Source of the DNA: Eledone cirrhosa
Taxonomy: Eukaryota
Reading direction: 5' to 3'
Length of the DNA stretch: 64,000 nt
Assembly: GCA_964016885.1 (NCBI GenBank)
Contig: OZ024760.1
Location: forward strand, 9,052,001-9,116,000
The position numbers and the translations under genes were made by a program. Below the pieces are notes generated by a model, which saw nothing but the letters and a program-made list of their open reading frames with translations, ran no database searches and had not been told where the DNA came from. Of this stretch, positions 28,400 to 59,700 are shown piece by piece (positions within the stretch are counted from its first letter, which is position 1; each line of letters opens with the position of its first letter).

Positions 28400-28433
28400 C
28401 TTGAAGAATGAAAACAGAGGATCAATTAAAAGA

Positions 28434-31400
28434 TAGACACCATGGCTGTAGTTAAACCTAGACATCATGGCTGTAGTTAAACCTAGACATCATGGCTGTA
28501 GTTAAACCTAGACATCATAGCTGTAGTTAAACCTAGACACCATGGCTGTAGTTAAACCTAGACATCATGGCTGTAGTTAAACCTAGACATCATGGCTGTA
28601 GTTAAACCTAGACACCATGGCTGTAGTTAAACCTAGACACCATGGCTGTAGTTAAACCTAGACATCATGGCTGTAGTTAAACCTAGACATCATGGCTGTA
28701 GTTAAACCTAGACATCATGGCTGTAGTTAAACCTAGACACCATGGCTGTAGTTAAACCTAGACATCATGGCTGTAGTTAAACCTACATATCATGGCTGTA
28801 GTTAAACCTAGACATCATGGCTGTAGTTAAACCTAGACACCATGGCTGTAGTTAAACCTAGACATCATGGCTGTAGTTAAACCTAGACATCATAGCTGTA
28901 GTTAAACCTAGACATCATGGCTGTAGTTAAACCTAGACATCATGGCTGGAGTTAAACCTAGACATCATGGCTGTAGTTAAACCTAGACATCATGGCTGTA
29001 GTTAAACCTAGACACCATGGCTGTAGTTAAACCTAGACACCATGGCTGTAGTTAAACCTAGACACCATGGCTGTAGTTAAACCTATACATCATGGTTGTA
29101 GTTAAACCTAGACACCATGGCTGTAGTTAAACCTAGACACCATGGCTGTAGTTAAACCTATACATCATGGTTGTAGTTAAACCTACACATCATGGCTGTA
29201 GTTAAACCTATACATCATGGTTGTAGTTAAACCTACACATCATGGCTGTAGTTAAACCTATACATCATGGTTGTAGTTAAACCTAGACACCATGGCTGTA
29301 GTTAAACCTAGACATCATGGCTGTAGTTAAACCTAGACATCATGGCTGTAGTTAAACCTAGACATCATGGCTGTAGTTAAACCTAGACATCATGGCTGTA
29401 GTTAAACCTAGACACCATGGCTGTAGTTAAACCTAGACATCATGGCTGTAGTTAAACCTAGACATCATGGCTGTAGTTAAACCTACAAATCATGGCTGTA
29501 GTTAAACCTAGACACCATGGCTATAGTTAAACCTAGACATCATGGCTGTAGTTAAACCTAGACATCATGGCTGTAGTTAAACCTAGACATCATGGCTGTA
29601 GTTAAACCTAGACATCATGGCTGTAGTTAAACCTATACATCATGGTTGTAGTTAAACCTACACATCATGGCTGTAGTTAAACCTAGACATCATGGCTGTA
29701 GTTAAACCTAGACATCATGGCTGTAGTTAAACCTAGACACCATGGCTGTAGTTAAACCTATACATCATGGCTGTAGTTAAACCTAGACATCATGGCTGTA
29801 GTTAAACCTAGACATCATGGCTGTAGTTAAACCTAGACATCATGGCTGTAGTTAAACCTAGACACCATGGCTGTAGTTAAACCTAGACATCATGGCTGTA
29901 GTTAAACCTAGACACCATGGCTGTAGTTAAACCTAGACATCATGGTTGTAGTTAAACCTACACATCATGGCTGTAGTTAAACCTAGACACCATGGCTGTA
30001 GTTAAACCTAGACATCATGGTTGTAGTTAAACCTAGACATCATGGCTGTAGTTAAACCTAGACACCATGGCTGTAGTTAAACCTAGACATCATGGCTGTA
30101 GTTAAACCTAGACACCATGGCTGTAGTTAAACCTAGACATCATGGTTGTAGTTAAACCTACACATCATGGCTGTAGTTAAACCTAGACACCATGGCTGTA
30201 GTTAAACCTAGACACCATGGCTGTAGTTAAACCTAGACATCATGGCTGTAGTTAAACCTAGACATCATGGCTGTAGTTAAACCTAGACACCATGGCTGTA
30301 GTTAAACCTAGACATCATGGCTGTAGTTAAACCTAGACATCATGGCTGTAGTTAAACCTAGACATCATGGCTGTAGTTAAACCTAGACATCATGGTTGTA
30401 GTTAAACCTACACATCATGGCTGTAGTTAAACCTAGACACCATGGCTGTAGTTAAACCTAGACATCATGGTTGTAGTTAAACCTACACATCATGGCTGTA
30501 GTTAAACCTAGACACCATGGCTGTAGTTAAACCTAGACACCATGGCTGTAGTTAAACCTAGACATCATGGTTGTAGTTAAACCTACACATCATGGCTGTA
30601 GTTAAACCTAGACACCATGGCTGTAGTTAAACCTAGACACCATGGCTGTAGTTAAACCTAGACATCATGGCTGTAGTTAAACCTAGACATCATGGCTGTA
30701 GTTAAACCTAGACACCATGGCTGTAGTTAAACCTAGACATCATGGCTGTAGTTAAACCTAGACATCATGGCTGTAGTTAAACCTAGACATCATGGCTGTA
30801 GTTAAACCTAGACATCATGGTTGTAGTTAAACCTACACATCATGGCTGTAGTTAAACCTAGACACCATGGCTGTAGTTAAACCTAGACACCATGGCTGTA
30901 GTTAAACCTAGACATCATGGCTGTAGTTAAACCTAGACATCATGGCTGTAGTTAAACCTAGACATCATGGCTGTAGTTAAACCTAGACATCATGGTTGTA
31001 GTTAAACCTACACATCATGGCTGTAGTTAAACCTAGACACCATGGCTGTAGTTAAACCTAGACACCATGGCTGTAGTTAAACCTAGACATCATGGCTGTA
31101 GTTAAACCTAGACATCATGGCTGTAGTTAAACCTACATATCATGGCTGTAGTTAAACCTAGACATCATGGCTGTAGTTAAACCTAGACACCATGGCTGTA
31201 GTTAAACCTAGACATCATGGCTGTAGTTAAACCTACATATCATGGCTGTAGTTAAACCTAGACATCATGGCTGTAGTTAAACCTAGACATCATGGCTGTA
31301 GTTAAACCTAGACATCATGGCTGTAGTTAAACCTAGACATCATGGCTGTAGTTAAACCTAGACATCATGGCTGTAGTTAAACCTAGACACCATGGCTGTA

Positions 31401-32503
31401 GTTAAACCTAGACATCATAGCTGTAGTTAAACCTACACATCATGGCTGTAGTTAAACCTAGACATCATGGCTGTAGTTAAACCTAGACACCATGGCTGTA
31501 GTTAAACCTAGACATCATGGCTGTAATTAAACCTAGACATGATGGCTGTAGTTAAACCTAGACACCATGGCTGTAGTTAAACCGAGACATCATGGCTGTA
31601 GTTAAACCTAGACATCATGGCTGTAGTTAAACCTAGACATCATGGCTGGAGTTAAACCTAGACATCATAGCTGTAGTTAAACCTAGACATCATGGCTGTA
31701 GTTAAACTTAGACACCATGGCTGTAGTTAAACCTAGACACCATGGCTGTAGTTAAACCTAGACATCATGGCTATAGTTAAACCTAGACATCATGGCTGGA
31801 GTTAAACCTAGACATCATAGCTGTAGTTAAACCTAGACATCATGGCTGTAGTTAAACCTAGACATCATGGCTGTAGTTAAACCTAGACACCATGGCTGTA
31901 GTTAAACCTAGACACCATGGCTGTAGTTAAACCTAGACACCATGGCTGTAGTTAAACCTTGACATCATGGCTGTAGTTAAACCTAGACATCATGGCTGTA
32001 GTTAAACCTAGACACCATGGCTGTAGTTAAACCTAGACATCATGGCTGTAGTTAAACCTAGACACCATGTCTGTAGTTAAACCTATACATCATGGTTGTA
32101 GTTAAACCTAGACATCATGGCTGTAGTTAAACCTAGACATCATGGCTGTAGTTAAACCTAGACACCATGGCTGTAGTTAAACCTATACATCATGGTTGTA
32201 GTTAAACCTACACATCATGGCTGTAGTTAAACCTAGACATCATGGCTGTAGTTAAACCTAGACACCATGGCTGTAGTTAAACCTATACATCATGGTTGTA
32301 GTTAAACCTATACATCATGGCTGTAGTTAAACCTAGACATCATGGCTGTAGTTAAACCTAGACATCATGGCTGTAGTTAAACCTAGACACCATGGCTGTA
32401 GTTAAACCTAGACATCATGGCTGTAGTTAAACCTAGACATCATGGCTGTAGTTAAACCTAGACATCATGGCTGTAGTTAAACCTAGACATCGTGGCTGTA
32501 GTT
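28434..32503. repeat. 25-bp satellite (catggctgtagttaaacctagacat), ~162 copies, MRI1 intron 3
   Basis: Seen directly; ends ~35 nt from the exon 4 acceptor. Confidence 0.98.
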
Positions 32504-32645
32504 TGGATTAGATATTTGGCGTTTGGTTCTTCAACACACAAATTTATATTTCACAAATATTTCCAACAATCTTAATGACAACTTCTTGGCCAGAGGAGTA
32601 AAATGTTTGTTAATTTAAAGAGAGTTGGTCTTAAAATGAGTAACC

Positions 32646-57882: not shown

Positions 57883-58564
57883 CTTCTTTCTTAATTTTGT
57901 ATATTCAACTTCTTGTTTTTATGTCATCATCACCACCACCACCATCATCATCACCACCACCACCAGGAAATATTTAGACGCACGGTGATTTTGAGGGTCA
58001 AATCTTGGAAAAAAAGTGCGTCCTTTATTTTTTTAAATACAGTAATTTTTACTTTTGTGAGTTAATCCTCCATTCTGACAACTCTGCTAATTCCCAGCTT
58101 TAATTATGAAATCAGTAACAATTGGCAACAAATAGACTTTGTTATTTATCAGTGACAAGGGATTCACTAATACCTCGTTAATTAAAGGGATCCTTCAGTT
58201 TCTCAGCCTAATCTCAAATTACTTCCTAACGAGATTAAAAGATCGTCTACTTCTGTTATAATTACTGGAATTGGATCAATTTTTTTCATCAATACTTTTT
58301 TCTTAATCAATTTGGTAGATTAATTTCCAATGTAATGTGATTGTGGTGGTGGTGGTAGTAGTGTTGAAGGTTGTGGTAGTAGTAATGGTGGTGGTAGTAG
58401 TGATAGTAGTTTAGTGGTGGTGGTAGTAGTAGTCGTAGTAGTAACAGTGGTGGTGGTGGACAACTAGAACACTGCATTTTATTTAACAACCAGCTTGGAC
58501 ATATTTTGTGTTTCTCTGTAAAAAATAAGTTTCACATTGGAGAGACCCTTCATTAACATATAAG

Positions 58565-58713
58565 ATGGGTGGAGGTAAAAAGCCCCCTAAAGGACCAGAA
58601 GAGGAGGAAGAAGATGACCCCATGAATAACCCCGAACTTGTGAAGATAATTATTGGTCAACTAAAATATCAGTTGAAAATGGAAAGGATGATGGTGTCGG
58701 AGTCTATCAAACT
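58565..58713 (+). CDS. Heterotrimeric G-protein gamma subunit-like (GNG13/Ggamma30A-type), first coding exon
   Basis: MGGGKKPPKGPEEEEEDDPMNNPELVKIIIGQLKYQLKMERMMVSESIKL|gtgagt. LKYQL.MER...S.SI matches the Ggamma coiled coil; phase-2 donor; the second exon is not found in this window. Confidence 0.7.
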
Positions 58714-58759
58714 GTGAGTAAAAACTGAGTTTTATTTGTGTGTATCTGGTTTAGAATAG

Positions 58760-59700
58760 GTACACTGTAGCTACACTGTAATTACACTGTAGTTACACTG
58801 TAGCCACATTGTAGTTACACTGTAGCCACACCACAGTTACACTAGATACACCACAATTACACTGTAGCTACACCACAATTACACTAGCTACACCACAGTT
58901 ACACCATAGCCACACTAGTTATACCACATCTACACCATATCTACACCACAGTTACACTAGTTATACCACATCTACACCACAGTTACACTGTAGTTATACC
59001 ACATCTACACCACAGTTACACTGTAGTTATACCACATCTACACCATATCTATACCACATCTACACCACAGTTACACTGTAGTTATACCACATCTACACCA
59101 TAACTACACTGTAGTTATACCATAGTTACACTGTAGTTACACAATATTTACACCACATCTACACCATAGTTATACTGTAGTTATACCATATCTACACCAC
59201 ATCTACACCATAACTACACTGTAGTTATACCATAACTACACTGTAGTTATACCATATCTACACCATAACTACACTGTAGTTATACCATAGTTACACTGTA
59301 GTTACACAATATTTACACCACATCTACACCATAGTTATACTGTAGTTATACCATATCTACACCATAACTACACTGTAGTTATACCATAACTACACTGTAG
59401 TTATACCATATCTACACCATAACTACACTGTAGTTATACCATAGTTACACTGTAGTTACACAATATTTACACCACATCTACACCATAACTACACTGTAGT
59501 TATACCATACCTACACCACATCTACACCATAACTACACTGTAGTTATACCATATCTACACCACATCTACACCATAACTACACTGTAGTTATACCATAACT
59601 ACACTGTAGTTATACCATATTTACACCACAACTACACTGTAGTTATACCATAGTTACACAATATCTACACCACAGCTACACCACATCCACATCACAGCCA
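58760..59700. repeat. Degenerate 11-bp-based satellite (acactgtagtt/ataccatatct)
   Basis: Seen directly; starts ~45 nt after the donor. Confidence 0.9.

Follow-up and report, generated by a model that had tools for sequence, protein, structure and literature searches.

Sequence stuttering on the dot chromosomes of chicken (PMC12954441, 2026) generates repetitive introns of local origin, which occasionally contain copies of an exon edge and show strong length polymorphism. According to the accessible part of that article, the phenomenon occurs among vertebrates only in birds and some gerbil genes, and it has been linked tentatively to high GC content and G-quadruplex (G4) motifs, with the mechanism left open. 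Minisatellites spanning a splice junction were described in five human genes, i.e., in F7 intron 7 (37 bp), 6-16, CBS intron 13, LMNB2 and PDGF intron 4 (81 bp), and for F7 the first donor was shown to be the one in use (PMC1557585, accessible part). Here, we compare with these systems a 64-kb stretch of DNA from the octopod Eledone cirrhosa (contig OZ024760.1, positions 9,052,001 to 9,116,000; hereafter the window, with positions counted from its first letter), in which tandem arrays occupy the introns of MRI1 (methylthioribose-1-phosphate isomerase), POLD2 and a G-protein gamma subunit gene (G-gamma). An original prediction, made from the letters of the window, had held that many exons carry a private array at their edge, and that a local process may amplify junction DNA in what could be an undescribed mode of intron growth. 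The window was flagged on account of this repeat pattern, and all statistics refer to this one window, with counts over 16 coding exons, 27 splice sites and 13 complete introns.

When the published exon-stuttering screen was re-run with its cut-offs of 20 nt and 42.1 bits, one of 14 introns (13 complete, one partial) passed. This was MRI1 intron 3, with 33 matches of up to 143 bits, while the maximum in 20 shuffled runs was 28.2 bits. Two further exon-edge cases, both in POLD2, carry 10-15 exon nt.

Distance of the arrays from exons

The arrays lie closer to exons than expected by chance. This edge bias is genuine but modest, and a bias towards the splice junctions themselves is absent. Tandem Repeats Finder (TRF) and an independent lag scan yielded a catalogue of 26 arrays between 27 and 64 kb, of which 19 non-microsatellite arrays in complete introns (14 of them TRF-detected) entered the main counts. 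The other seven were left out, namely a microsatellite mosaic at 35525, two arrays between the start codons of MRI1 and POLD2, a single array 3' of the POLD2 stop codon, and the three arrays of the G-gamma intron, which is incomplete; of these three, one lies close to the donor and two at a distance. Raw-coordinate distances were discarded as a test; they are misleading because arrays make up most of some introns (in MRI1 intron 3, 176 of 6,951 bases are non-array). In the null model, each array was collapsed to one unit, microsatellites were removed, and the unit was placed at random with junction overlap permitted; p-values were corrected for nine distance thresholds.

In these collapsed coordinates, 14 of the 19 arrays lie within 115 nt of a splice site vs 9.0 expected if each array is kept in its own intron (corrected p = 0.016) and 6.2 expected if arrays may fall in any intron (corrected p = 0.0006). 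For the 14 TRF-only arrays the corrected p-values were 0.025 and 0.0045, respectively. The excess is located 50-115 nt from splice sites; at distances of up to 25 or 50 nt there was none (p = 0.08-0.66), and mean log distance, tested over the 19 arrays, gave p = 0.07-0.11. Addition of the microsatellite mosaic resulted in 15 of 20 near arrays vs 9.8-10.0 expected, and removal of MRI1 intron 3 in 10 of 11 vs 5.1-5.2 expected.

Altogether, arrays account for 13,753 of the 26,371 bases (52%) of the 13 complete introns, and 10,127 of these bases are in exon-near arrays, which bears out the predicted local seeding and intron growth. A non-microsatellite array was found within 115 nt of 15 of the 27 splice sites, 12 of the 16 coding exons and 9 of the 13 acceptors. 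The private-array units that had been listed (25, 81, 24, ~30, 41, 21, 64, 47-69 and 11 bp) are all present, 0-114 nt from homology-anchored splice sites, with 61 and 143 bp corrected to 62 and 142 bp. That list omitted the exon-distant arrays, i.e., a 37-mer (361 nt), a 48-mer (374 nt), a 60-mer (313 nt), an 18-mer (1397 nt) and the 70- and 46-mers of the G-gamma intron.

The description of the repeats as private holds for 13 of the 19 intronic arrays, which we class as local (including the 142-mer, despite its partial match at 45889-45961). It does not hold for the six arrays that match dispersed repeats elsewhere in the window, nor for the start of the G-gamma 11-mer, which matches the 37-mer. 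The six dispersed-repeat-seeded arrays show no edge bias (two near vs 1.8-1.9 expected). Being private and being near an exon coincide because dispersed repeats are scarce beside exons and abundant farther in: they make up 10% of the intron bases in the first 50 nt next to an exon, a share that reaches 41-55% at distances over 150 nt.

Junction-spanning units and the growth of arrays

Three arrays clearly span a splice junction. The largest is the 81-bp exon-stutter array of MRI1 (32646..35422, minus strand), whose unit joins the last 70 nt of exon 3 to the first 11 intron nt; the donor is kept in all 34 copies and an in-frame stop follows each of them. An old, degenerate array missed by TRF (47198..47353, plus strand) holds five copies of the POLD2 exon 3 donor with 10 exon nt each, and GT is retained in four of the five; the second donor lies at +33 nt, in frame and without a stop. 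The acceptor of the last POLD2 exon is present in four copies (57450..57647, plus strand) at spacings of 47, 57 and 69 nt, with 11-15 exon nt each. Use of the extra acceptor at 57507 or 57564 would keep the frame without a stop and add 42 or 23 residues, respectively; the copy at 57460 leads to a stop after four codons. A fourth case is marginal: the 21-bp x41 array at 51553..52417 (plus strand) begins 0-3 nt from the POLD2 exon 5 donor and includes one exon base at most. Because chance exon matches of 10-11 nt turn up in non-adjacent introns too, a short exon overlap counted only if it was contiguous with the junction.

Additionally, the unit of a 62-bp x6 array (54320..54683, plus strand), which starts 63 nt past the POLD2 exon 7 donor, aligns without gaps over 44 nt to the region of that donor (54236-54279; p = 0.009, with no correction for the dozens of comparisons made). 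The 62-mer was picked up by a second scoring but not by a first scan, which compared units with neighbouring DNA; judged by this alignment, the 62-mer may be a diverged duplicate of the exon 7 donor region. Of at least four arrays that had been proposed to be built from the junction, three are thus clear, whereas the 21-mer has at most one exon base and the 62-mer shows a mere resemblance.

Four spanning arrays compare with 2.0-2.9 expected in collapsed coordinates (p = 0.12-0.31), which is no significant excess, and the asymmetry between donors (3 of 6) and acceptors (1 of 9) is not significant either (Fisher p = 0.24, or 0.09 counting the 62-mer). Preferential amplification of junction DNA, as claimed in the original prediction, is not upheld: spanning units occur at chance frequency, and transposon pieces were amplified too. 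Of the two outcomes named beforehand as speaking against the claimed pattern, exon-containing units at chance frequency were found in the window, whereas the array positions are modestly edge-biased and so not random.

Variants within the two largest exon-near arrays bear on how the arrays grew. The 81-mer ends in a partial copy of 21-23 nt. Three columns vary among its 34 copies, and two of them coincide with the two positions that distinguish the exon copy from the far partial copy; one divides the copies 17:17, the other holds the exon-flank base in 3 of 34 copies. Exchange between short direct repeats is a model for the birth of minisatellites, and tandem repeats derived from transposons are likewise known. 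The columns of the 81-mer would fit exchange between two short imperfect direct repeats at varying crossover points, and later mutation and conversion could lead to the same pattern by another route. At the 17:17 column both variants encode leucine in the MRI1 frame, so a conversion of exon by array, or the reverse, would leave the amino acid unchanged. The two main variants of the 81-mer are interspersed without a period (best periodic match 0.60, p = 0.12). In the 25-bp array of MRI1 intron 3, the best periodic match is 0.35 (p = 0.34) and a 14-unit block is repeated (0 of 300 shuffles). Growth over many rounds is suggested, and a single rolling-circle event is unlikely, because the variant order is aperiodic and the 25-mer block is repeated. 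Homogenisation polarity gave no consistent signal among 15 arrays profiled: in two, the copies towards the exon were the more uniform ones (p = 0.037 and 0.014, uncorrected), and the two largest arrays near exons showed no polarity.

The units derive from exon, a repeat resembling short interspersed nuclear elements (SINE-like), an element resembling miniature inverted-repeat transposable elements (MITE-like) and unique intron DNA. Unique intron DNA holds 1.9 arrays per kb (13 in 6,999 bases) and dispersed-repeat DNA 1.4 (6 in 4,174 bases), and because these per-base birth rates look alike, the amplifying process appears not to be sequence-specific.

In MRI1, the 25-bp array (28434..32503; ~163 copies, with multi-unit block duplications) is 34 nt from the exon 4 acceptor and has no match elsewhere in the window. 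A compound AT/AC microsatellite mosaic (35525..36240) adjoins the exon 3 acceptor, and degenerate copies of a dispersed 46/48-bp family (36259..36467) lie 80 nt from the exon 2 donor. At 36858..37061, 65 nt from the exon 2 acceptor, a 68-bp array has formed from one end of a dispersed repeat with nine other loci, which we label SINE-like (Rfam gave no match). Deeper in the same intron are a 27-bp duplication within another copy of this SINE-like repeat (37772..37819; 979 nt from an exon) and an 18-bp x3 array without match elsewhere (38190..38243; mid-intron, 1397 nt from an exon). Upstream, a 48-bp x10 array (41137..41615) lies 86 nt from the MRI1 start codon, and 2.7 head-to-tail copies, 188 bp each, of the SINE-like repeat (42007..42505) lie between the start codons of MRI1 and POLD2.

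In POLD2, a 29-bp array passing into a 24-bp array (43829..44120) ends 27 nt ahead of the exon 2 acceptor. An array of ~60/72 bp (44583..44968; 313 nt from a donor) lies within a MITE-like element (44312-44980) with TTAA-bounded inverted ends, and a 48-bp x7 array of the dispersed 46/48-bp family (46368..46709) is found on the reverse strand, 374 nt from an exon. A 58-bp duplication of 1.5 copies (47913..48001) precedes the exon 4 acceptor by 50 nt. The 37-bp x56 array (48534..50613; 2.1 kb) is 361 and 744 nt from the flanking exons and has 33 nt in common with 58737-58769. Beside it, in POLD2 intron 4, a 39-codon open stretch after an acceptor-like site (50659-50775, minus strand) was considered as a nested exon and dropped, as it has no Pfam family and no homologue. 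Farther downstream, a 41-bp x7 array (50957..51243) lies 114 nt ahead of the exon 5 acceptor, a 29-bp duplication of 1.6 copies (52611..52656) 68 nt ahead of exon 6, a 94-bp array followed by a 64-bp array (53643..54023) 75 nt ahead of exon 7, and a 142-bp tandem duplication with a 3-nt overlap (56650..56936) 55 nt ahead of exon 9; part of the last unit matches 45889-45961. A 20-bp x3 array (57766..57829) is situated just 3' of the POLD2 stop codon.

In the incomplete G-gamma intron, a degenerate 11-bp array (58756..59701), whose start overlaps the 33-nt match to the 37-mer, begins 42 nt past the donor, followed by an AT-rich array of 68-74-bp units (the 70-mer; 60766..62244) ~2 kb and a 46-bp array of at least 35 copies from the dispersed family (62354..64000) 3.6 kb from the donor. 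One 46/48-bp dispersed sequence has thus formed tandem arrays at three places and on both strands (36259-36467, 46368-46709 and 62354-64000), with a further copy at 56499-56534, and it may be especially prone to amplification.

Origin of the exon-near arrays

With moderate confidence, we attribute the arrays to local duplication of any sequence, growth through recurrent slippage together with unequal exchange or gene conversion, and accumulation in older, transposon-poor, deletion-shielded exon flanks. Ordinary slippage and unequal exchange, not a new exon-targeted process, are likely at work. Short imperfect direct repeats 20-140 nt apart would mispair in replication or break repair and give rise to a second unit, for which the 81-mer is the best case. 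Many rounds of exchange among the copies would then add units and blocks and shuffle their variants, a pattern that is visible in the arrays themselves. A unit spanning a junction would leave the exon whole and place the extra copies on the intron side. Intron-side growth would need no directional selection, because tandem junction copies always leave one whole exon; this geometry would suffice in place of the selection that had been invoked to set the direction into the intron, and selection would act only on the choice of the splice site used. Since the first donor is used in human F7 (PMC1557585, accessible part), extra donors would be tolerated as harmless as long as the most upstream one is used here as well. 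In MRI1, later donors would each bring an in-frame stop, so that nonsense-mediated decay could remove such transcripts as a back-up. Extra acceptors would be tolerated less; they occur once, in front of a last exon, and two of these three keep the frame. Intron middles would turn over by transposon insertion and deletion, and arrays would survive best just outside the protected splice signals.

Four results weigh against this account. Microsatellites, which shelter from deletion might favour too, show no edge bias (3 of 13 near vs 2.7 expected). After masking of dispersed repeats, all 13 local arrays lie within 115 nt vs 9.2 expected (corrected p = 0.0065; p = 0.14 on log distance), albeit with a masking derived from one window, which is incomplete and inflates the residual edge bias. 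Introns contain 19 arrays per 11,173 bases vs 3-4 per 7,277 bases in 6000-27090 (p = 0.009-0.02), which hints at a link with transcription. Finally, several exon-near arrays look young, with copies 95-99% identical, so age alone explains them poorly. For these reasons a birth of arrays that is itself biased to exon edges stays in play as a tentative alternative, which we judge somewhat unlikely. Either meiotic strand invasion would begin in exons, the unique islands that pair best when homologues are polymorphic, or polymerase pausing at splice sites would lead to transcription-coupled breaks; error-prone repair would then duplicate the next 20-140 nt. Besides the bias left after masking and the array-rich introns, the excess at 50-115 nt, the arrays at 9 of 13 acceptors and the exon-flank base in 3 of 34 copies of the 81-mer would agree with this, and non-crossover gene conversion is named as a candidate for birds in the accessible part of PMC12954441. 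However, an excess within 25 or 50 nt and an excess of junction-spanning units are both absent, and polarity is inconsistent.

An array-rich region with short underlying introns and a small sample picked after the fact might mimic an edge bias, as chance alone gives six to nine of the 14 near arrays, the log-distance statistic stays at p = 0.07-0.11, MRI1 intron 3 holds only 176 non-array bases and the window was flagged for this very pattern; we consider this improbable given corrected p-values of 0.0006-0.025 in four versions of the test and an excess that holds without MRI1 intron 3. The rolling-circle reinsertion put forward in the original prediction, in which small circles excised at exon edges are amplified and reinserted in place, would explain large, near-uniform arrays beside their source such as the 81-mer (99% matches). 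A single event predicts uniform or strictly periodic copies, whereas the variants of the 81-mer and 25-mer are interspersed without a period, the 25-mer carries multi-unit block duplications and the unit length shifts within two arrays (29 to 24 and 94 to 64 bp), which renders this route very improbable; a circle may have served as first seed. That the arrays are assembly artefacts is extremely improbable: copy numbers of long arrays are open to mis-assembly, but the copies share structured variants and old diverged ends, and the intervening exons, all intact, are collinear with those of named relatives.

Genomic setting and comparison with known systems

The exons were placed by tblastn of named octopus proteins, five for MRI1 on the minus strand and ten for POLD2 on the plus strand. 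MRI1 (27101..41050) consists of coding exons 41050-40913, 36792-36548, 35523-35351, 28399-27998 and 27255-27101, with an intact 370-aa frame; 304 residues are identical to the 369-aa Octopus bimaculoides protein, and the largest exon has 89% identity to O. bimaculoides MRI1. POLD2 (42844..57757) comprises exons 42844-43066, 44148-44269, 47084-47207, 48052-48172, 51358-51553, 52725-52805, 54099-54256, 55735-55862, 56992-57093 and 57633-57757 in an intact 459-aa frame, with 383 residues identical to the O. sinensis protein without internal gap and 83% identity of one exon to O. sinensis POLD2. All splice sites of both genes have GT/AG ends, and the spliced frames (370 and 459 residues) are open and collinear with the named octopus references. 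The two genes are arranged head to head (41050-42844), with start codons 1.8 kb apart, and ~1 kb of this gap consists of two arrays. The first coding exon of the G-gamma gene (58565..58713, plus strand) was recognised by PF00631 (E = 0.002, below the curated cut-off) and a 91% match; a second exon or the rest of the protein was looked for within the window and not found. Its N-terminus is acidic and proline-rich, with a single close match among cluster representatives, and we take the exon (58565-58713) to resemble a cephalopod photoreceptor-type gamma subunit.

Four genes within 64 kb compare with a published octopus gene density of 8-12 per Mb, and the median length of the 13 complete introns, 1171 nt, is under both published octopus medians (1520 and 2467 nt; PMC10700109, accessible part). 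TRF covers 55% of the window, and simple repeats make up 14.7% of the O. minor genome (PMC6279123, accessible part). These figures suggest that the window is unusually gene-dense and repeat-rich relative to published octopus values, with introns that are not long. The published scaffold N50 of O. bimaculoides is 96.9 Mb, and the clusters of named relatives have longest contigs of 37.7 and 32.9 Mb, which is circumstantial for chromosome size. The region may be a gene-dense, highly recombining part of a small chromosome. Telomere-like motifs of three tandem copies do not occur in the window, and an Rfam search gave no match.

A likely last coding exon of a claudin/PMP22-like gene lies at 5496-5986 (plus strand; PF00822, E = 1.6e-4, below the curated cut-off). 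The 115 nt next to its acceptor hold a TG microsatellite, which ends ~48 nt upstream, but no minisatellite. A (TTC)87 run (6008-6271) immediately 3' of the stop codon of this claudin-like gene is followed by an old degenerate 17-bp array (6312-6833), and a compound TA/TG microsatellite tract of 13.7 kb (TRF) extends over 9149-22851 with ~1.8 kb of non-simple sequence within. Other features of this part are an 832-bp tandem duplication including flanking microsatellites (216-1909; 92% matches), a foldback (24989-25410) with arms of 132 nt that are 98% complementary and 158 nt apart, and a 223-codon stop-to-stop frame (3716-4387, minus strand), for which Pfam gave only a weak unrelated match and whose far end is presumably a GIY-YIG endonuclease remnant of a Penelope-like element. 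A 23-bp x27 array (25604-26216) has an AG...GT-bounded stretch ~80 nt upstream (25469-25521, plus strand), a possible unannotated exon. If this exon is real, the 23-mer would be another exon-near case, and the use of 6000-27090 as non-genic comparison would be weakened.

The claim of an undescribed mode did not stand, as the same anatomy has been published for chicken dot chromosomes (PMC12954441) and human genes (PMC1557585), in the accessible part of each. A literature search, with most subscription journals outside its coverage, returned no description in cephalopods; the accessible part of PMC12954441 does not mention octopus or cephalopods, and those of PMC10078293, PMC9795677 and 10.1101/2022.06.24.497555 contain nothing on an exon-near array pattern.

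Like the human junction minisatellites of PMC1557585 (accessible part), the MRI1 81-mer and the POLD2 exon 3 array have a first unit that spans the boundary and reiterates the donor (34 and 5 copies). Usually the first donor is used in the human type, and the octopod genes would follow by analogy. The human cases are isolated loci, whereas three clear ones occur here among 27 junctions. One of the three concerns an acceptor, and with 70 exon bases the MRI1 unit exceeds that of human F7, which has 4. For splice-site choice in a mollusc, the 34 identical donors of the MRI1 intron and the four acceptors of the last POLD2 exon provide natural test cases.

Partial end copies, end-specific variants inside an array and arrays within SINE-like and MITE-like elements are shared with the birth of minisatellites and with transposon-derived tandem repeats in general; what differs is how densely the arrays lie, with 19 in ~11 kb of collapsed intron.

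The closest parallel is avian, and the pattern resembles sequence stuttering in the way it appears to work. Relative to the accessible part of PMC12954441, MRI1 intron 3 (72 exon nt, 33 matches, 2.8 kb) falls within the published 20-187 nt and 1-44 copies, and the median TRF intron coverage of 0.30 (11 of 13 introns above zero) within the 7-93% of dot chromosomes. Both share local expansion of intron motifs, with exon edge and splice site occasionally copied into the adjacent intron and coding exons left intact, and a gene-dense setting may be common to both. Avian stuttering is tied to GC-rich genes, whereas the octopod genes are AT-rich (coding GC 0.40-0.43, GC3 0.37-0.40), and the two G4 motifs of the window (26.7-27.0 kb) are not at arrays. 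Dot euchromatin is described as lacking interspersed repeats; in the octopod, dispersed repeats, which also seed arrays, account for at least 4,174 of the 11,173 intron bases outside tandem arrays. Moreover, the octopod is an invertebrate, unlike the avian hosts. A further avian feature is extensive intron length variation within the species, and the comparison covers one assembled octopod sequence. The distance of purely intronic arrays to exons, tested here, is the subject of no test in the accessible part of PMC12954441. The octopod arrays are a candidate, not a settled, case of stuttering, because the GC-rich, transposon-free context is missing here and the octopod side is a single assembled sequence.

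A more speculative and rather unlikely reading is that octopods independently evolved stuttering territories like those of dot chromosomes on small, gene-dense chromosomes, where exon-anchored recombination or repair seeds minisatellites 50-115 nt outside the splice signals in AT-rich DNA without G-quadruplexes. Stuttering would then be no peculiarity of birds or of GC but a general result of intense recombination beside exons, and it would rank among the main sources of intron DNA and of splice variants such as the in-frame extra acceptors of the last POLD2 exon. An AT-rich, G4-poor octopod stuttering, if true, would separate GC- and G4-related replication stress from meiotic conversion as causes, and a matching octopod pattern would make the mechanism testable in a second phylum. 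On present evidence the arrays call for no new mechanism; they are a possible independent, AT-rich case of the stuttering known from birds.

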